From sequence record MN850564.1: a stretch of 64,000 nt of DNA. One strand, given 5' to 3'. The notes below the pieces were generated by a model, which saw nothing but the letters and a program-made list of their open reading frames with translations, was not told the DNA's origin and did no database searches. Positions 5,771-55,552 of the stretch are shown here, in pieces. How positions within the stretch are numbered: the first letter of the stretch is position 1; each line of letters begins with the position of its first letter. The translations under genes were made by a program, and so were the position numbers. Source of the DNA: Escherichia phage humlepung.

Positions 5771-13768
<7,998 letters not shown>

Positions 13769-14965: not shown

Positions 14966-17305
14966 ATGGCAGATTACAAGTTGAGTGAATTAAACTCAAT
15001 CGACACAATCCGTTCAGACGACCTTCTCCATGTCAGGGTTAAAAAGAGACCTGAAATGTTAGGTGATGAAGACCGTCGAATGACCTATCAAGACTTCTTA
15101 GCGTCTTTTAAACTAGAAAGATTTGTTCAGATTGCTGGTAGCACTATGACGGGTGACTTAGGAATTGTCAAGTTACTTTATGGTGGTAAGGCAGTATTTG
15201 ACCCTACAGACTCTTCTGAGATTACTATGGGGGATGTTTTAAAGGCTTTTAAAATCAATGCAAACGGTCTTAAACTAACTATTGCAGATGCTTCAAGGTC
15301 TGCAACTGTTTATCATACTCTGAATAAGCCAAGCCCTAATGAACTTGGGATGAGAACTAATGAAGAGAATGACGCAAGATATGCAAGGTTGGCTGTTACA
15401 AACACATTTAACTCTAAACAGACCATTGTAGCAAATGGGGAACAGTTAACACTAAGGTCTCCTGTGAGTGGGGATAGAGCATACTCTGCTATTGTAGGTA
15501 GGGATGCAAGTAATGAAAAAACTTGGGCTATTGGGAACCTGATTAGGGGTAGTCTTGATGTTCAAATCGAGAGTAAACTAGGTTCCATCCTCACTCTAGG
15601 CACGGCTGCTTCTTTTAATAGGTCTTTATCAATCAATGGTCAAGTGCAACCTTCTGACTTCTCTAACTTGGATGCAAGATACTTCACACAGACAGCAGCT
15701 AATCAGAGATTTGCACAGCTAGTTGGCAATAACACCTTCAGGGGTATTAACAATTTTGTAGGAGAGTTCAATATCACCAGAGATAACGCTGTGCTAGTCA
15801 TTAAGAATGCCACTGCTGCAACTGGACTATACTTGCTGGGGCAGAAGGCTGATGGGACAAACAAGTTCTACTTAGGGACTGATAACTCTGATTCTGCAGT
15901 CAACCTACATAACTACACCACGAGTACAACTATCTCTTTGTCAAATGTGATTACCACTACTAAGACTGTGAAAATCACTGGTCAAGTTCAGCCTTCAGAT
16001 TGGGCTAACATTGACTCTAGATACATTCCAGCAGCAACATTAAGTACAATTGCAAGAACTAATGCAAGTAACACGTTCACTGCAAAGCAGGTTATTAACA
16101 CTAATGGTGAAGCTCTTGTGTTACAAGGAAAAACAACCGCCGCACTTTACATTAGGGGTAAGGACTATGATGGAACGAATAGGTGGTATGTTGGCAATGA
16201 TGACGGTAGTGACACTGTTAGTTTGTATAACTATAAAACTGGTAAAAACCTAAGCATTGGTTCCGAAGTATCAATTAATGCAAACTTAGTAATTGGTGGT
16301 CAAGTACAACCTAGCAACTTCACAAACTTTGATGCAAGGTATTACGGTAAAGCCGAAGCCGATTCAAAGTATTTCTGGTCAGCATTCAGAGCTTCGAAGA
16401 CCGAGGCTGCTGGTGGTGTGGCTTGGGACCAACCATCAGGAATCTATCTTGAGACAAAATCTAGCGGGCAAAACCGTTTAGTCTTGCACATGGCCTCTAA
16501 TGCGAAAGCCCTAACACCATCTGCACAATTAAGATTTGAATCGAAAAATGGTGGGATGTGGTACAGGTCAGCCAGAGACACACTTGGCTTTGAGGTTGAA
16601 TGGTCTAAGGTTTACACTGAAGCTCAGAAACCTACCCCTTCAGAGATTGGTGCATACACTAAAGCTGAAACTGACCAGAAGATTGCAGAAGCAATTAGTG
16701 ACTCTACAGACCTGAATAAAATCTATCCAGTAGGTATTGTGACGTGGTTTAACAGTAATGTTAACCCTAATACAGCACTGCCTGGCCTAACTTGGACGTA
16801 TCTGAAGAATGGTGTTGGTAGGACTATTAGAATTGCAGCAGCAAATGGTTCAGATGTTGCTACAACTGGTGGTTCAGATTCTGTAACGTTAGCTGTTGGT
16901 AACTTACCTTCGCACACGCACAGTTTTTCTGCGACTACCTCATCGTTTGACTACGGAACAAAAAACACTAACACGACTGGTGCTCACACTCACTCTGTAA
17001 GTGGCTCTACTTCATCTGCTGGTAACCACAACCATTCCATTTCGTGGATTGGTCAGAACTCTACACACTACTCTGGTGGTGGTGGTGGTAGTATTGGTGT
17101 AGGACCGGGTTACACCGATGTTAACGGTGCTCACACCCACTCCGTAAGTGGTACTGCCGCTTCTGCTGGTAACCATGCTCACAGTGTTGGTATTGGTGCT
17201 CACAGTCATACAGTAAGTGGTAACACTGGTGGTACAGGTTCTGGTTCAGCATTTAGTGTTACTAACCAGTTCTACAAGTTAATGGCTTGGGTGAGAACTG
17301 CTTAA
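14966..17305 (+). CDS. long tail fibre protein with His-box C-terminus
   Basis: 779 aa; three internal ~110-aa repeats containing GQVQPS(D/N)(F/W)xN(L/I/F)D(A/S)RY; C-terminus HTHS/HNHS/HAHS/HSHT repeats ending ...MAWVRTA. Confidence 0.6.
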   Translation: MADYKLSELNSIDTIRSDDLLHVRVKKRPEMLGDEDRRMTYQDFLASFKLERFVQIAGSTMTGDLGIVKLLYGGKAVFDPTDSSEITMGDVLKAFKINANGLKLTIADASRSATVYHTLNKPSPNELGMRTNEENDARYARLAVTNTFNSKQTIVANGEQLTLRSPVSGDRAYSAIVGRDASNEKTWAIGNLIRGSLDVQIESKLGSILTLGTAASFNRSLSINGQVQPSDFSNLDARYFTQTAANQRFAQLVGNNTFRGINNFVGEFNITRDNAVLVIKNATAATGLYLLGQKADGTNKFYLGTDNSDSAVNLHNYTTSTTISLSNVITTTKTVKITGQVQPSDWANIDSRYIPAATLSTIARTNASNTFTAKQVINTNGEALVLQGKTTAALYIRGKDYDGTNRWYVGNDDGSDTVSLYNYKTGKNLSIGSEVSINANLVIGGQVQPSNFTNFDARYYGKAEADSKYFWSAFRASKTEAAGGVAWDQPSGIYLETKSSGQNRLVLHMASNAKALTPSAQLRFESKNGGMWYRSARDTLGFEVEWSKVYTEAQKPTPSEIGAYTKAETDQKIAEAISDSTDLNKIYPVGIVTWFNSNVNPNTALPGLTWTYLKNGVGRTIRIAAANGSDVATTGGSDSVTLAVGNLPSHTHSFSATTSSFDYGTKNTNTTGAHTHSVSGSTSSAGNHNHSISWIGQNSTHYSGGGGGSIGVGPGYTDVNGAHTHSVSGTAASAGNHAHSVGIGAHSHTVSGNTGGTGSGSAFSVTNQFYKLMAWVRTA

Positions 17306-17956: not shown

Positions 17957-17986
17957 AAGGCTCCTTTTTACGGGAGCCTTTTTTGT
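17957..17986. terminator. terminator at convergence of plus and minus operons
   Basis: GGCTCC...GGAGCC hairpin followed by T6; lies between the stop codons of converging genes. Confidence 0.6.
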
Positions 17987-21087: not shown

Positions 21088-21471
21088 TCAAATACCTGTG
21101 CAGCTTCTGTTTTCTAAGAAATACTCAACACCATACATAGCTTTTTGCATCAAATCTTCTTTAAACTGGATACGGTGGTTGAGCATAGCTTGTACATCAA
21201 TATCGTCATGGTGTTTCTCTTTAATATTTGCAGATTGCAGGAAATACTCTGCAAGAACACGATACTGGTAGTCAGTTACCTTATCAGTCATCTCTGTCAA
21301 AGACTCTTCAGAGATTGGTTTAAGTAGCTCACCATTAGCCAGAGCAACACCTTTTACAATCTGGCAAGTATCTTCTGGAACACCTGACAAGTCCACATTT
21401 GGAAGTTCTGTTGCATTGACTGGTAAATTCATTGTCATAACCATTGCAGCAGCTAATAAAATCTTTTTCAT
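21088..21471 (-). CDS. secreted protein with N-terminal signal peptide
   Basis: 127 aa; MKKILLAAAMVMTMNLPVNA signal-like N-terminus; RBS GAGGTC. Confidence 0.5.
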   Translation of the reverse strand: MKKILLAAAMVMTMNLPVNATELPNVDLSGVPEDTCQIVKGVALANGELLKPISEESLTEMTDKVTDYQYRVLAEYFLQSANIKEKHHDDIDVQAMLNHRIQFKEDLMQKAMYGVEYFLENRSCTGI

Positions 21472-21589
21472 AATGACCTCAAAGTTATATTAAATTTTGT
21501 ATTACGTTGAGTATAAAAATAAGCTATAACACCTGACTTGTCAACAGATTTTATAGCTTATTTGGCAGATTTTTTATAAGGCTACTGCC

Positions 21590-21830
21590 ATCCTTCCATA
21601 CTATACCCTACCAAACCGTACCTAACCTCACCCTACCGAACCGAACCGTACCTCATTAAAAGACCCTCTTTAAAGACCTTTTAAAAAGGTAAGTCTCATT
21701 TTAATGTAGCTGAGACTAACTACCCATACCAAACAGCACCGCACTATGCCTTACCCCACCTCACCGAGCCTCGCCCCACATCACTTAAAAACCCTTTTCA
21801 AAGACTCTTAAGTGATGTTGGTGAGTACCC
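21590..21830. repeat. G-poor degenerate tandem repeat (2 units of ~105 bp) in a 560-bp non-coding gap
   Basis: Two units of ACC/CCT-rich sequence each followed by TTAAAA(G/A)ACCCT...AAAGAC; hairpin GTCTCA...TGAGAC between them. Confidence 0.5.
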
Positions 21831-22032
21831 GTTGGTTTATGCTGCTCAGTATACTCACCAAATTTTCTATGTCAACAACTTTTTATAAAAAAGTTCTGAT
21901 AGCTATATGTGTCACGAAACAAAAGATTGTAAACAAGACACCCATTGCAAAAGATGTGTCCAAAAGCTTACTTGCAACGTATGACAATACAAAGACAACC
22001 AGTATAAACAGAATGACTGTACTGAACATAGT

Positions 22033-23133
22033 TTACTCATAATCCCTAATAACTAGCCCGACAGGGAACTGTAAAGAACCCTTACGAGTCATCTTCTGGA
22101 ACTGTACCGTTAAAGGCTTCCCGATAAACTCTTCAGGATGCTCAGCAAGATACTGTTTCTTCTCATGAGTAGTCTTCCATGATACATCTACAAAGACGTT
22201 AGGAAGAGTCTCTACAACGAACTTACCATGACCACGTTTATCAGTCTTTACACCAGTCACTTTAAACTCTTCAGTGTGCATCTTCTTGTGCTTAATCAAG
22301 AAGTATGAACGGTGACCACACTCATAGAAAGATTCTTCAGAGATTGAACGGTACATTGCACCTTCAAACTTAGCTTCAACCCACTTATCATGAGCTTCAT
22401 CAAATTCTTCCCAAGAATTTACACGACGAGACTTAACAGGAACAACTTTACAGCCATCTCTAAAGTCATTCAATGGTGAAGTCTCAATAATATCTCTACG
22501 CTCAGGCCACGTCTTAGTGCTGTCACAGATATCGTACCAGTAGAACTGGAGTAGATGTCGGTCTGGATTGTCAGCATTTTTAATCATAGACACAATATCT
22601 TCTAAGTCCCAACCATGAGCATAAATCTCACCATCAAAGTCTTCGACTTGTGGATGCAATTTAAGCAACAAAAGCAAATCTGGGATTAGTTCTGCTGGGA
22701 CGTTGTAAATAGTATTCTCACGAGAATAAGCCGTGAAGCTAACTAAATCAGCATCTCTTGAGATTCTACAACGTACACCATCAAGTTTTGGTTGAGCATC
22801 AGCAGGGAACTTCAGATACTTTGCATGACTAACCTTTGCAGCATCATGAGCAAGCTGTACACCTACCTTCTCAGTATTCTGTGCAGACTCTTTTGTGTAA
22901 GCATAACCTTTACGGTCAACTTGCTTTTTATACTTAGCAGCAACTTCAAAGAGAGCTTGCTGTTCAGCGTTACGCTCATTCTTTTTACCGATGTTCTTAG
23001 GCTCTGCTGTATACTCTTCAAACATCATCTTGCCATTCTCTTTACCATAGGTTGTAATAACTTTGTCACCTACAGCAACACATGACCAGACGTTGAAGGA
23101 ACCATCTTTATTTTGTTTGTACAGAATTGTCAT
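22033..23133 (-). CDS. ATP-dependent DNA ligase
   Basis: KLDGVRC motif I (KxDG); start set to ATG 23133 with GAGG RBS rather than track start 23169. Confidence 0.75.
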   Translation of the reverse strand: MTILYKQNKDGSFNVWSCVAVGDKVITTYGKENGKMMFEEYTAEPKNIGKKNERNAEQQALFEVAAKYKKQVDRKGYAYTKESAQNTEKVGVQLAHDAAKVSHAKYLKFPADAQPKLDGVRCRISRDADLVSFTAYSRENTIYNVPAELIPDLLLLLKLHPQVEDFDGEIYAHGWDLEDIVSMIKNADNPDRHLLQFYWYDICDSTKTWPERRDIIETSPLNDFRDGCKVVPVKSRRVNSWEEFDEAHDKWVEAKFEGAMYRSISEESFYECGHRSYFLIKHKKMHTEEFKVTGVKTDKRGHGKFVVETLPNVFVDVSWKTTHEKKQYLAEHPEEFIGKPLTVQFQKMTRKGSLQFPVGLVIRDYE

Positions 23134-23326
23134 TTTTAACCTCTGAGTGATACCAAGTATTGCAAGCATTACATGCGTAAAGCTCTAAGTCATTTTTATC
23201 TGGTTTGTGGAAACAGTTTGACCCACAACGACACCGGAATAGCTTACCATCAACACGAAGAATGAATGTTTCAAGCTCACCATCTTCTGTAAGAACTGCG
23301 TTCTTAAATTTATCTTCTACAGTCAT
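23108..23326 (-). CDS. small Cys-rich hypothetical protein
   Basis: 72 aa; CRCGSNCFH...CNACN zinc-ribbon-like. Confidence 0.45.
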   Translation of the reverse strand: MTVEDKFKNAVLTEDGELETFILRVDGKLFRCRCGSNCFHKPDKNDLELYACNACNTWYHSEVKNDNSVQTK

Positions 23327-23529
23327 TTTCTCTTACCACCAATCTCTACGTCGATAACTTGAACATCGCCAGCAACATCAAACTTATGAATGATGCTTTC
23401 CACAGTGTAAGTCCAACCCTCAATGCGAACCAACTCACCTTCTCGTGGGACGATTGGATTACGTTGAGCTACGGTTGTAGTGGAGTGAACAACATCATAA
23501 CAATAGATGTAGTTTACTAAGACTTCCAT
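23323..23529 (-). CDS. small hypothetical protein
   Basis: 68 aa from ATG 23529 with GAGGT RBS (the longer track ORF overlaps the lipoprotein gene). Confidence 0.4.
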   Translation of the reverse strand: MEVLVNYIYCYDVVHSTTTVAQRNPIVPREGELVRIEGWTYTVESIIHKFDVAGDVQVIDVEIGGKRK

Positions 23530-23539
23530 CGTGAAAACC

Positions 23540-23809
23540 TCACTCAATAACCGTAGTGTGTGATTGACCATTTTTGCCATAGCTATAAGATGTTGTTGTT
23601 TGGGAGTTTGGACATCTGACAACAACAATATCTCTGCTTATAGCATCACCATGTAACTTGTATACTTTGCAATCTTGCATCTCTGGTGGGAGACTGTAAG
23701 AAGCATTTTTATCTTCATAAGAAGGGTTGCAGCCAGATAGAAAAACAACACCAAGCGCAATTACTGCTTTCCACATAATACTTCCCCAGAGACTGTACAT
23801 TTTCTTCAT
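23540..23809 (-). CDS. lipoprotein (lipobox LSGC)
   Basis: 89 aa; N-terminus MKKMYSLWGSIMWKAVIALGVVFLSGC with lipobox Cys; RBS GGAG. Confidence 0.5.
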   Translation of the reverse strand: MKKMYSLWGSIMWKAVIALGVVFLSGCNPSYEDKNASYSLPPEMQDCKVYKLHGDAISRDIVVVRCPNSQTTTSYSYGKNGQSHTTVIE

Positions 23810-24024
23810 AGCAACTCCAGAATATCAATACGTTCGCCCTTAAGGACTCCAGTACGGTCTCTTGCAATCTTGCCGTCAACAATAAGGATATGTGCAGCCC
23901 TTAAAGAGTCACTATTAAAAGCTTTTACGAACTTACTAGGCATCACTACAATGGGCATCTCCTGAATCAACTCTGGAGTATAGCAATTGTCGTGAAGTTG
24001 CTGAATAACGTCTGCAAGTGTCAT
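23806..24024 (-). CDS. small hypothetical protein
   Basis: 72 aa from ATG 24024 (track start is TTG at 24039); RBS GGAGA. Confidence 0.45.
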   Translation of the reverse strand: MTLADVIQQLHDNCYTPELIQEMPIVVMPSKFVKAFNSDSLRAAHILIVDGKIARDRTGVLKGERIDILELL

Positions 24025-24281: not shown

Positions 24282-24785
24282 TCAACTTAGTTTTGCAAAC
24301 TCTCCGTGGAGTTTAATAGCAGCTTCACAGTAAGCTTTATGGGCTTCTTCTGGTGTGTCAAATAAACCAAGTGATGTCCTTTTACCTCTGCATGTTATAG
24401 CTGCCCTCCACTTATTGCAGTCTTTAAAGTAATGTACACCCTTGTAACCTGATTTGTTAGTCGTCTGCTTTACCCTATTTTGAGCATTTCCGTATTTATC
24501 AGTCTCCCTAAGATTAGAAATGTGATTATTACTTCTGTTACCATCAATGTGGTCTATCATCTTAGTGGGTTTGTAACCATGTTCGAACCACCAAACGAGG
24601 TGATGAATTTTTATTACGACATCTTTGAATTTAAGTACTTTGTAACCGTAAGCATCAGCACCTCCTGCAATCTGCCCAGCTTTAGCTTGTCTATTCCTGT
24701 CATACTTGTTGTAGAAGACCCCTTTGTCGGGGTCGTAAATAAAATTATCCTTGTAGTCTTGAAGTGTTAGTGTACGGCGTACCAT
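24282..24785 (-). CDS. HNH homing endonuclease with AP2-like DNA-binding domain
   Basis: IDHIDGNRSNNHISNLRE (HNH) plus YKGVHYFKDCNKWRAAI...LGLFDTPEEAHKAY (AP2-like); start overlaps the 3-prime end of the polymerase gene. Confidence 0.6.
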   Translation of the reverse strand: MVRRTLTLQDYKDNFIYDPDKGVFYNKYDRNRQAKAGQIAGGADAYGYKVLKFKDVVIKIHHLVWWFEHGYKPTKMIDHIDGNRSNNHISNLRETDKYGNAQNRVKQTTNKSGYKGVHYFKDCNKWRAAITCRGKRTSLGLFDTPEEAHKAYCEAAIKLHGEFAKLS

Positions 24786-27466
24786 GTCTTACCTACCTTA
24801 CCAGTGCCTGTAACAAGCGTCTTACTCTTTAATCCAAGATTTTTTGATGCTTGACCATACATTCTATCAATAATCTCCTTAACATCAGGTACATCTTTGG
24901 TTGGAACCTCTAAAGAGACCTCATCGTGGTAACTACAGACCCACCTAGCACCAATAGCTGGCTTCCTACCATTTAGAACTGTAAGCTTGCGCTCTGTTAA
25001 CTCCCTGTTAGCCAAGTTAATACCCTCATTCTGCACCTGCGCCTCACTGCCCATAAGTGTGTAATTCAATAACTTATGTGGAGATTTACACCATAACCAC
25101 GCCCCAGCAACCTTGATATAGCCACCTTTTGCAATTGCAGAAGTCTTTCCGAAAACCTCTTCAAGTGCTTTCTTAGTTGCTTTGAAGTCTTCCTCTAGTC
25201 TATCAAGCAGCTTTTTAATCTTAGGTAGACGCACAAAGTAAGTTTGTTTAGTCAATGCACCCTCTTCCGTAGATGATGCCTTGATAGTTTTTGCAAACTT
25301 CTCGTCTCCGGCTCCAAATAACAGGGCGTAGATGCCATTTTTGCTCTTCTTACGACCTTTTGTAATCTCGTGGAGAAGTTCCTCATCCTGTGTCTCCCTG
25401 CAACGAACAATATCCTCTTCTTTGTTAAGACCAAAGTAAATACTGTTCAGTGTATGCGCATCAGTCCCTGTGTAGACTTCATAGAGGTCATTTTCAGCAT
25501 CATAACGCAGATACTTGTCAGTTTCTGGGTTAAGATACTTGTCAAGATGTTTACAGTAGTATCTACCATCATCTTGCTTAGTGAACTCTACTGACTCTTT
25601 ACCCTCAGTTACCGCTTTAGTGAAGTCTTCATCACCCATAAAGTTACAAAGAAGAACTAGCTGGGCTGAGTTTTGGTCTACGGAGATGATATCTGTACCA
25701 TCTTCACAAGTCCACACCTCCCTCATAGGTGCTCCATAGACAGCAGCACCAGACGGTACGTTTACAATACCATATTGTGTCATACGTCCAGTTGAAGTGC
25801 CAAACACCATTGCACCAGCACTAAGGCGACCATCAGGACGAATCTGGTTCAACCAACCTTTTTCATCATCCTTTGAGTTCTCAATAGTTCTGCGTCGGTG
25901 CATCAAAGTATAGTACTTAGCAATCTTCTGTCCAAGCTCACCTTCAATCGTATCATAAGATGATTCAGTAAGTTTTGGTGAAGTACGGATTAAGCAAGGT
26001 TCAAGCAAATCTGTGTATTTCTTCACAGACCAGTTATGCTCGATGTACTGTACACCTTCATGTTCAACATAACTCAAACCACACCGCTCAACCATTTCCT
26101 GCCACTTAGGATGCTTTGTAATCATCTTTTTATTGTCTTTGAAACGACAAACTTTGATAGGGCGACCATCTGAGTCTTTCTTGTAATTCCAGTCATCTGG
26201 AATCCAACCAACTGATTTCAAGTAGTCTTTAACAACTGCTACCTGAGTCATACGAGAAACTTCAAACTCAATTGGTGTATATGGTGCATCAATCAAACCT
26301 GTGTAGCGACTTGACTCAAGTTCAAAGTGATTGACAACGTGACTGTTATAGTACTTCACAGTCTTGACTGTTTTTACTGGTTTCCAGTCTTTGCATTTTT
26401 TGCCAATCTTTGCATTCAACTCGTTGCAGATTGCACGAGCATCCTTCATCGCTACAAAACCCTCTTTGTACTCTTCACCAGTTACAGAGTTGGTTGGTGT
26501 ATAGCAATTTCTCTTTTCAATGTTAAAAATCTTTGTAGTTGGCTTACCAAATGGTTTGATTTCATAAGTCTGCATCTCACCATTACGTACCTGCTGACGA
26601 TACTTTGTCTTAGGGTACTTGGTAATTCTCTTCAGTCCATCTGCATGACCAAATGTTTCAACATACTCATTCCAAGCTTTTGCAAACTCTTCTCCAGTGA
26701 CTTTACCTTTGGTCTTAATAGTTGGAGGAAGATGTGGTTCAACCTCTGAAGCAAGTTCATTAGTCAATTTGTCAAGCTCCTTTACATGGAACTCCATAAG
26801 CTCCTTATCAGCTTTCCAACCATTGATAGCTTGCTGGCTCATCCAGAAAGATGTCTCTTTAGCTCGCATGTAAGTCTCATAAGTGTCTATACCACACTTC
26901 TTAAGCTTGAGATACTCGTTATCAAGTGCCCGTTTAGTTTTGGCATTAATACGGATATCTTCTACAACACGAGTGAAGATTTCTGCATTCCACACACCCC
27001 AATGTTCAATCTCTGGTTTACGGACACCAACACGAGCACCCCATGCAGCCAAACCATGAGCACCTTTATAACCCTTTGGGGTTGGCCTATCCATCCACTG
27101 AACACGAGACTGGATAAGAGAGTCCTGAAAGAAATTACTCCACGGTTTACACTTTGGATTATCAAAGTTCCATAAATCAGGTGCAATGTGATTGAAAACC
27201 CACCAGTCATAACCGAGACCATTATGGATGCAAAGACGTTTTGCCTTTAACGCAAATTCAACACCTTCACGTAAACCACCTTTGATGTACTTAGTGTACT
27301 TGTGACCGAGGATAGGCTCATCTGTAAAGACCCATACAGGTGGCTCTTCATCGTCAGATTTATAGTCTGCAAAGGCCATTACGTGAACTTTAGTGAACTC
27401 AAGGAGTAAACCATCAGTTTCTGTATCACCAACCAAATGTAAGTTTTTAAAATCTACGTTTTCCAT
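24767..27466 (-). CDS. DNA polymerase, family A (3-prime-5-prime exonuclease plus polymerase)
   Basis: 899 aa from ATG 27466 (RBS AGGGAG); DTETDGL exo motif, K...YG motif B (KNGIYALLFGAG), HDE motif C. Confidence 0.85.
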   Translation of the reverse strand: MENVDFKNLHLVGDTETDGLLLEFTKVHVMAFADYKSDDEEPPVWVFTDEPILGHKYTKYIKGGLREGVEFALKAKRLCIHNGLGYDWWVFNHIAPDLWNFDNPKCKPWSNFFQDSLIQSRVQWMDRPTPKGYKGAHGLAAWGARVGVRKPEIEHWGVWNAEIFTRVVEDIRINAKTKRALDNEYLKLKKCGIDTYETYMRAKETSFWMSQQAINGWKADKELMEFHVKELDKLTNELASEVEPHLPPTIKTKGKVTGEEFAKAWNEYVETFGHADGLKRITKYPKTKYRQQVRNGEMQTYEIKPFGKPTTKIFNIEKRNCYTPTNSVTGEEYKEGFVAMKDARAICNELNAKIGKKCKDWKPVKTVKTVKYYNSHVVNHFELESSRYTGLIDAPYTPIEFEVSRMTQVAVVKDYLKSVGWIPDDWNYKKDSDGRPIKVCRFKDNKKMITKHPKWQEMVERCGLSYVEHEGVQYIEHNWSVKKYTDLLEPCLIRTSPKLTESSYDTIEGELGQKIAKYYTLMHRRRTIENSKDDEKGWLNQIRPDGRLSAGAMVFGTSTGRMTQYGIVNVPSGAAVYGAPMREVWTCEDGTDIISVDQNSAQLVLLCNFMGDEDFTKAVTEGKESVEFTKQDDGRYYCKHLDKYLNPETDKYLRYDAENDLYEVYTGTDAHTLNSIYFGLNKEEDIVRCRETQDEELLHEITKGRKKSKNGIYALLFGAGDEKFAKTIKASSTEEGALTKQTYFVRLPKIKKLLDRLEEDFKATKKALEEVFGKTSAIAKGGYIKVAGAWLWCKSPHKLLNYTLMGSEAQVQNEGINLANRELTERKLTVLNGRKPAIGARWVCSYHDEVSLEVPTKDVPDVKEIIDRMYGQASKNLGLKSKTLVTGTGKVGKTWYAVH

Positions 27467-27723
27467 TTTTACTCCCTCTAAAATCATTAACCTCATACAT
27501 TACTGCAAAAAATTATAAAAAGCAAGTTGACAATGTACTTGACAAGGTGTTAATCTTTGCGAAGTGGGTTTTTACTTAAAAGGTCACTTAACAGTTTAAC
27601 TATACAGATACTTTAAAACTCTTAAAAGATTATTTAATAGCTTTTAAAAAGCTTTAAAGTATAACGTATAGAATACGTTAAGATAAAAGATTAAAACTTA
27701 ATAGTTACTTAAAAGAGGCTTAC
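27467..27723. promoter_or_regulatory. divergent intergenic control region with palindromic operator-like sites
   Basis: Between divergent pol and plus-strand operons; TTGACA x2; palindromes AGCTTTTAAAAAGCT and AACGTATAGAATACGTT (the latter contains a TATAGAAT -10-like element). Confidence 0.5.
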
Positions 27724-55041: not shown

Positions 55042-55389
55042 ATGACATTTAAAGAGTTCTGTCAAGCTACTTTCATAATTGTTTTCTTAGTTGGTGCAGG
55101 TGTCTGGGGAGGATACTCTTACAGAGACTATCAAGTTGCTGAAGCTGAGCTAAATAATGAGAAACTAATAAGTGTTGCTAAAGATGCTTATCAGGAAGGT
55201 TTAGCCACACTCAGCACCAATTACAAAAATGATTTGAAAGATGTGCTTGCTAAGAATAAGCATACAAAAGAGGTACTAACGTATGAAAAGACTAAGCCAG
55301 AGTTTTATAATGTTTGTGTTACTGATAATTATGTCAGGGTGTTCAACGAACAAAGTGAGCAGTACATTCAAAAACTCCCAAGTAAGTGA
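55042..55389 (+). CDS. i-spanin-like protein (N-terminal TM plus helical periplasmic domain)
   Basis: 115 aa; TM segment ATFIIVFLVGAGVWGGYSY; RBS AGGAGA; 3-prime end overlapped by lipoprotein gene. Confidence 0.4.
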   Translation: MTFKEFCQATFIIVFLVGAGVWGGYSYRDYQVAEAELNNEKLISVAKDAYQEGLATLSTNYKNDLKDVLAKNKHTKEVLTYEKTKPEFYNVCVTDNYVRVFNEQSEQYIQKLPSK

Positions 55390-55552
55390 GAGTGATAAGT
55401 ACACTCAAGAAGAATCACGGTATATCATCAAAGGCAACACAGGTAGTGATGTAGCAGCAGCACTTGAGTTCTACCGTGACGGATTTTACCAGTGTACAAT
55501 CAAAGCTAATAACCTTATTGACATGATTTTATTAGGGAATAAGCAGCAATGA
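55283..55552 (+). CDS. o-spanin-like lipoprotein (overlapping, +1 frame)
   Basis: 89 aa; MKRLSQSFIMFVLLIIMSGC lipobox-like signal; starts inside preceding gene. Confidence 0.4.
   Translation: MKRLSQSFIMFVLLIIMSGCSTNKVSSTFKNSQVSESDKYTQEESRYIIKGNTGSDVAAALEFYRDGFYQCTIKANNLIDMILLGNKQQ

Follow-up and report, generated by a model that had tools for sequence, protein, structure and literature searches.

A candidate lipoprotein of a widespread virulent-phage family, encoded in a Felixounavirus replication unit, with a possible role in protecting the infected cell

The window analysed here, a stretch of 64,000 nucleotides, is Felixounavirus DNA (94-96% identical to phages momo and Felix O1) and very probably encodes a lipoprotein that is expressed, secreted and lipid-modified. 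Signal peptidase II (SPII) is predicted to cut before Cys27, leaving a mature chain of ~62 residues that would form a disulfide-stapled sheet with a polar patch. The gene very probably belongs to the PHROG 902 / DUF4884 family, a stand-alone accessory gene in many virulent-phage lineages, and would be expressed from the replication transcription unit. We propose, with a probability of roughly 0.35, that the product acts in the periplasm from an outer-membrane anchor, binding a conserved component of the envelope and protecting against superinfection or lysis from without independently of the receptor, and not through Llp/Cor-style receptor closure. Gene and family have been catalogued before but not characterised; Felix O1 ORF91 is annotated "hypothetical protein", and literature searches found no function for the lipoprotein gene or DUF4884 and no experiment on any family member.

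Translation of the window at 23540..23809 on the minus strand yielded an 89-aa protein, MKKMYSLWGSIMWKAVIALGVVFLSGCNPSYEDKNASYSLPPEMQDCKVYKLHGDAISRDIVVVRCPNSQTTTSYSYGKNGQSHTTVIE. The gene, its start signals and the parts of its product are listed below.

23540..23809, minus strand: lipoprotein coding sequence, orthologue of Felix O1 ORF91 (89 aa from M1; TGA stop at 23540..23542)
23540..23776, minus strand: alternative coding sequence from M12 (78 aa, MWKAVIALGVVFLSG directly before the C of the cleavage site; GGGGAAG upstream)
23815..23818, minus strand: Shine-Dalgarno-like GGAG, 5 nt upstream of the M1 ATG and within the 3' end of the upstream ORF
23732..23809, minus strand: signal peptide, codons 1-26 (n-region with K2, K3 and K14; h-region AVIALGVVF; lipobox L-S-G at 23732..23740)
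23729..23731, minus strand: Cys27 codon, predicted lipidation site and mature residue 1 (invariant in 110 homologues)
23543..23728, minus strand: rest of the mature domain, residues 28-89 (~20-residue tether, then beta-sheet; LPPEMQDC(47)KVY and VVRC(66)PNSQTTT…GK)
23669..23671, minus strand: Cys47 codon, invariant (predicted disulfide partner of Cys66, base of hairpin 48-52/61-66)
23612..23614, minus strand: Cys66 codon, invariant (within the RCPNS motif)

The equivalent of M12 (MWK…) is the start in most orthologues, where a purine-rich site is also found upstream, and the M1 and M12 starts lead to the identical mature lipoprotein. At M1, the ATG and the stop codon of the preceding ORF share bases (ATGA), an overlap through which the lipoprotein gene would be translationally coupled to that ORF. 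Downstream, the lipoprotein ORF is overlapped by a 101-aa ORF (23323..23628), but the PHROG 4427 match covers only residues 34-101 of this longer form, which is thus really a 68-aa gene (23323..23529) and in no frame conflict with the lipoprotein gene. In phage momo (MN850580; locus L002, 2168..2428, minus strand) the lipoprotein ORF is intact yet unannotated, and the record annotates the overlapping long form (303 nt) of the downstream gene instead. This inconsistency may recur in other records of that study, from which momo alone was compared.

Lipoprotein N-termini were defined by a positively charged n-region, an uncharged h-region and a lipobox ([LVI][ASTVI][GAS]C) with its Cys at position 15-35. 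The N-terminus of ORF 23540..23809 had the features of an SPII substrate, with the lipobox L24-S25-G26-C27 (C16 when counted from M12) following an uncharged hydrophobic stretch. In a six-frame scan, a strict lipoprotein N-terminus was found in one ORF of the whole 64-kb window. Relaxing the -3 position gave two ORFs, as opposed to 0.37 per mononucleotide-shuffled window, and the second of these was the o-spanin candidate of the following pair.

55042..55389, plus strand: Rz-like i-spanin (115 aa, N-terminal transmembrane segment; overlaps the o-spanin)
55283..55552, plus strand: o-spanin lipoprotein (89 aa, MKRLSQSFIMFVLLIIMSG directly before the C; corresponds to Felix O1 ORF7)

The first-pass annotation had reported an 89-aa ORF with a signal peptide and a canonical lipobox (VVFLSGC), and the translation, the six-frame scan and the invariance of Cys27 confirmed this. 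The +2 residue of a lipoprotein sets its Lol sorting, and Asn at this position predicts sorting to the outer membrane; the +2 residue of the predicted mature lipoprotein is Asn.

The AF2 model generated from an alignment of 110 sequences (pLDDT 70, moderate confidence) consisted of a signal helix, a tether of ~20 residues and an antiparallel sheet of four to five strands. C47 and C66 face each other in the model at the base of hairpin 48-52/61-66, and, given the strand register and the invariance of the Cys pair, a periplasmic C47-C66 disulfide closing this 19-residue hairpin is probable. Around the predicted disulfide lies a conserved polar patch (D46, K48, R65, P67, N68, S69, T71, G78 and K79), and the C-terminus of the lipoprotein (…GKNGQSHTTVIE) is hydrophilic. 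Fold comparison of the model returned no match indicating a ligand, and a sequence-profile search of the PDB returned matches to the signal peptide only. The first AF2 model, built from a shallow alignment, had a pLDDT of 55 and was unusable.

The lipoprotein matched the PHROG 902 HMM (E 2.4e-17, residues 11-87), as did 19 of 19 diverse relatives tested, and its only other PHROG match, to PHROG 15147, was weak. Precomputed Pfam annotation records PF16225 (DUF4884) at E<=1e-5 for every homologue, and DUF4884 is the NCBI name for some phage proteins; hmmscan against a local Pfam-A did not return PF16225 for the window protein or for 110 relatives. Scans of the protein and its relatives against Pfam, NCBIfam and PADLOC gave lipid-attachment-site matches or sub-threshold noise alone. 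A profile search of 1.84 billion representatives (E<=1e-3) found 632 clusters at 50% identity, nearly all of 75-100 aa with a lipobox.

Across 110 diverse sequences the three Cys (C27, C47 and C66) were invariant, P41, P67, T71 and K79 were near-invariant, and D46, R65, N68, S69 and G78 were conserved at 76-89%, giving the consensus Y-x-L-P-x-E-L-x-D-C-K-x-Y … V-V-R-C-P-N-S-x-T-T-T … G-K. Many family members end in an extra strand (…VVIDGVEYxK) and some (P0027, P0031, P0098 and L056) in a helical tail (…KLTPEERKALGL), both of which are absent from the window protein.

Among 24 Felixounavirus sequences, 23 of them distinct in the mature region, dN/dS was 0.105 in the mature region and 0.57 in the signal region, where selection is relaxed. 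The strong purifying selection on the mature part indicates that the protein is functional and that its mature domain evolves under constraint instead of diversifying. The mature sequence is 78-100% identical among the Felixounaviruses of Salmonella, E. coli, Shigella and Citrobacter, and the ORF was intact in all 23 related Felixounavirus loci. Two metagenome contigs (P0012 and P0013) carry a 64-aa frameshifted form of the Felixounavirus lipoprotein, attributable to sequencing errors or to occasional gene loss, and these copies suggest that the gene may be dispensable.

By tblastn, the family was present in 584 phage records, the hosts of the phages being Enterobacteriaceae, Vibrio, Acinetobacter, Aeromonas, Pseudomonas, Erwinia and Serratia. 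Phages with a family member include the following.

Felixounaviruses of Salmonella, E. coli, Shigella and Citrobacter
T5-like Vibrio phages of 114 kb
Acinetobacter Obolenskvirus and the T4-like phage Acj61
Vequintavirinae (CB7, CR8)
Jumbo phages (121Q, Serratia BF, Erwinia, Yersinia)
Aeromonas and Pseudomonas phages

Of 64 loci compared, 56 came from IMG/VR, 5 were taken from annotated phage records and 3 lay on contigs located by protein look-up; they formed 27 lineages at 55% identity, a lower bound for the family. No conserved partner gene was found over these loci, any neighbour family being common to at most 2 of 27 lineages. Where the loci were annotated, the neighbours were small hypothetical genes or genes of replication and nucleotide metabolism, and no receptor-binding gene lay near the family members. 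The gene is normally single-copy; one 193-kb viral contig carries tandem divergent paralogues (L031, 6010..6306 and 6303..6629).

A DNA pattern for VVRCPNSxT, which recovers 20 of the 64 phage loci and hence about a third of members, produced 92 matches and no true member among 185,579 bacterial and archaeal species (one genome each). As far as a pattern that sees about a third of members can tell, the family thus seems to be linked to virulent phages, with few or no members in prophages. One family member of a different setting lies on a 2.23-Mb contig (L062, 10001..10255; JGI 3300047323), where its neighbours are ankyrin-repeat proteins, a Cys-tRNA synthetase, a dUTPase and genes that mostly lack a Pfam match; such a contig is unexpected for an otherwise phage-borne family and might belong to a giant virus or a symbiont, or result from chimeric assembly. 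Three further records bear Staphylococcus or Campylobacter labels: GU169904 ('Staphylococcus phage SA1') carries Felixounavirus sequence at 93.6% DNA identity, MG065664 ('Campylobacter phage A132') matched the Felixounavirus lipoprotein by tblastn at 92.5% protein identity, and MG065668 ('Campylobacter phage A126') was matched through a distant family member only. These records are probably contaminated or mislabelled.

In the window, the lipoprotein gene is surrounded by small hypothetical ORFs, the ligase gene, an HNH endonuclease gene and the polymerase gene, and lies between the following two genes.

24767..27496, minus strand: DNA polymerase
22033..23169, minus strand: DNA ligase

The order of the minus-strand unit is DNA polymerase, HNH/AP2 homing endonuclease, small ORFs including the lipoprotein gene, ligase, dihydrofolate reductase and thymidylate synthase, and the unit ends at a bidirectional terminator (17957..17980). 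The scan for promoters and terminators performed no better than shuffles. The tail-fibre block lies on the opposite strand and ends at 17305, 6.2 kb from the lipoprotein gene. The gene had been described as lying between the polymerase and ligase genes and outside the structural and lysis modules; both statements hold: the polymerase and ligase genes are on the minus strand, the gene belongs to the replication unit and the spanin pair is elsewhere.

The same description had placed the lipoprotein gene among small early genes, and the small-gene setting was borne out. In Felix O1, the transcription unit runs from ORF96 to ORF80, ORF96 is detectable at 5 min, and ORFs 88, 89, 90, 93 and 96 peak at 25 min (PMC3185647). 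Because this RT-PCR timing covers neighbours in the unit (ORF91 is marked "NT"), 'early' is assigned to ORF91 only through its unit, and "early to middle" would be more accurate. The ORF91 protein was absent from the Felix O1 virion proteome by mass spectrometry (PMC3185647).

Several other features of the region were observed. The homing endonuclease gene (HNH_3 and AP2; 24282..24785, minus strand) shares 19 nt with the 3' end of the DNA polymerase gene, and the small-gene cluster downstream of it varies among relatives, Felix O1 having an extra 48-aa ORF92 adjoining the lipoprotein gene. The same transcription unit encodes a second exported protein (21088..21471, minus strand; 127 aa; PHROG 4332) with a Sec-type signal peptide (MKKILLAAAMVMTMNLPVNA directly before TE). 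Between this homologue of ORF87 and the ligase gene lies a gap of 561 nt (21472..22032), compared with 282 nt in Felix O1, which contains a very hydrophobic 48-aa ORF (21883..22029, minus strand) together with the sigma-70-like site that scores best in the region (21875..21848, 11/12 matches).

For the function, we favour an outer-membrane-anchored periplasmic factor that would bind a conserved envelope component, with peptidoglycan or a conserved envelope machine as candidates, and not the receptor of one phage. By hindering late-arriving phages in penetrating the envelope or delivering their DNA, or by hindering lysis from without, the bound lipoprotein would keep the infected cell protected during the latent period. 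Consistent with this proposal are the lipoprotein signal with its invariant Cys, the strong purifying selection confined to the mature part, and the occurrence of 632 clusters of short lipoproteins over many virulent-phage lineages. So too are the contexts of small early or replication genes with no shared neighbour, the lack of a true bacterial member in the motif scan, and the absence of the protein from the Felix O1 virion. To our knowledge, superinfection exclusion is the established function of the characterised non-spanin lipoproteins of virulent phages. Against the proposal, the fold matches of the moderately confident model point to no ligand, and two metagenome contigs hold frameshifted copies. 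The argument for a conserved target is drawn from the distribution of the family, and an action on lysis timing, envelope homeostasis or a host defence would be just as possible.

The closest analogy to the proposed mechanism is that of Sp (spackle) and Imm of phage T4, which are located in the envelope and block a post-adsorption step of superinfection whatever the receptor. Sp is soluble in the periplasm, Imm resides in the inner membrane, and neither is a lipoprotein. The first-pass annotation had named functions of the Imm/Sp type for comparison; neither kinship with these T4 proteins nor their specific mechanism found support, and neither protein was matched through PHROG or Pfam. Superinfection exclusion may yet occur in a broader, receptor-independent sense.

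The main rival to the protective factor is one of envelope takeover or homeostasis with no part in exclusion, a possible but rather unlikely role. Such a protein would bind peptidoglycan or a conserved machine (e.g. Tol-Pal, Lpp, PBP activators, lytic transglycosylases, Bam, Lpt or Lol) and, to the benefit of the phage itself, would make the envelope more stable, remodel it or adjust when lysis occurs. In favour of this role, the spread of the family over hosts suggests a conserved target, the conserved patch has a polar and charged character, and the gene shares its transcription unit with replication and nucleotide-metabolism genes whose expression peaks in mid-infection. The other exported protein encoded in the same unit (21088..21471) and the rIIA/rIIB homologues carried by the phage also count in its favour. 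However, no homology or fold match to a known peptidoglycan-binding or envelope-regulator domain was found, and the gene shows no linkage to lysis genes.

Closure of the phage's own receptor, in which an Llp/Cor-type lipoprotein would mask or inactivate it from the periplasmic side, is improbable. The window protein is of the same size class as these proteins, with a predicted lipid anchor, disulfide and beta-rich fold and presumed expression in lytic growth, and T5 Llp (PDB 8a60 chain B) is likewise a small phage lipoprotein of lytic infection. The likeness to T5 Llp noted in the first-pass annotation therefore stands as a general analogy between small, disulfide-containing, beta-rich lipoproteins of lytic growth. 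Kinship was not supported, as T5 Llp aligned with the family profile over the signal peptide only (E 2.1), and fold comparison of the model gave no match to Llp. Llp is anchored in the inner leaflet of the outer membrane, faces the periplasm and has an intramolecular disulfide; its target is FhuA, and llp adjoins the receptor-binding gene, directly downstream of it (PMC9586334). In contrast to llp, the window gene lies in the replication unit of an LPS-binding phage.

Cor of T1, phi80 and N15 (PHROG 1119) is a lipoprotein of ~75 aa with a conserved Cys pair that acts in exclusion via an outer-membrane receptor. Alignment of the two families with hhalign covered 20 columns, all in the signal peptide, and gave a probability of 0.5% for the mature parts, and hmmsearch found no family member in T1 (E 0.006). 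The T1 cor gene is placed just after the tail genes. In Cor, and presumably also in Llp, the disulfide connects the two termini of the mature chain, whereas the predicted disulfide of the window protein (C47-C66) staples a hairpin. A match of one relative (P0026) to PHROG 1119 (E 7.8e-5, residues 1-53) was dropped as a sign of relationship to Cor, being most likely due to the signal peptide.

Receptor closure is further opposed by the high identity of the mature sequence (78-100%) over Felixounaviruses of Salmonella, E. coli, Shigella and Citrobacter, and by the conservation of the family over phages of unrelated receptors. Felixounaviruses adsorb to the LPS core and not to an outer-membrane protein (PMC13196588; PMC3185647), which leaves no obvious protein receptor for allosteric closure by a periplasmic lipoprotein. 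The sharing of the family over unrelated receptors and hosts, together with LPS-core adsorption, thus makes an Llp-like, receptor-specific block unlikely. Receptor masking, the specific mechanism put forward earlier, was not upheld on these grounds, on the missing homology and on the lack of a receptor-binding neighbour.

There is a similarly slim chance that the lipoprotein is a counter-defence factor, neutralising an envelope-located anti-phage function of the host or a prophage, or the entry or exclusion system of a competitor. In favour of this role, the accessory gene stands alone and in single copy, in variable regions and only in virulent phages; the tandem paralogues in one contig would suit it as well. 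However, the PADLOC defence-system models gave no match, and strong purifying selection with slow divergence is unusual for arms-race genes. The model of the TrbK entry-exclusion lipoprotein (TIGR04359) matched one orthologue at N-terminal residues 9-43, which span the signal peptide and the beginning of the mature chain, with 14.3 bits, below the cut-off of 23, and did not match the window protein itself.

A lysis component, either an o-spanin or a u-spanin, is very improbable. The protein resembles o-spanins such as Rz1 and Felix O1 ORF7 in being a small phage outer-membrane lipoprotein, but these come with an i-spanin partner, and the spanin role was rejected for 23540..23809 because the canonical overlapped pair is located at 55042..55552. 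As an Rz1-like o-spanin the candidate was excluded by its flanking ORFs, which hold no transmembrane segment, and by the lack of a conserved neighbour, and as a u-spanin (T1 gp11-like) by its hydrophilic C-terminus, which has no transmembrane segment; its domain is predicted to be a folded, disulfide-stapled beta domain, not a proline-rich linker. Felix O1 ORF7 itself, the o-spanin, is still "hypothetical" in RefSeq. That the ORF is a chance or decaying one with no function is hardly credible in view of the dN/dS of 0.105, the 632 homologous clusters with three invariant Cys and the ORF intact in all 23 related Felixounavirus loci, although it is unannotated in some records (momo) and has two frameshifted variants.

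Together, the probabilities attached to these readings fall short of one, since some other, unforeseen role is still likely. A wider generalisation, doubtful at present, is that DUF4884/PHROG 902 forms a third, unrelated and much wider class of phage lipoproteins for exclusion or envelope control. Such lipoproteins would act independently of the receptor on a component conserved in Gram-negative bacteria (e.g. peptidoglycan, TonB/TBDT energy transduction, or LPS or outer-membrane-protein assembly) and would give the infected cell broad cross-protection. The observation itself is solid, and no surprising feature has been demonstrated so far.

Should the lipoprotein prove to be an exclusion or envelope factor, it would add a new and unrelated variant to the known phage lipoproteins, one that occurs far more widely than Llp or Cor. 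With a role in envelope protection or exclusion, the gene would be a common portable module of numerous virulent phages, among them candidates for therapy (e.g. Felix O1-like, rV5-like, T4-like and jumbo phages). The module would then be relevant to the design of phage cocktails, because phages might exclude each other, and it could reveal a conserved weak point of the envelope.
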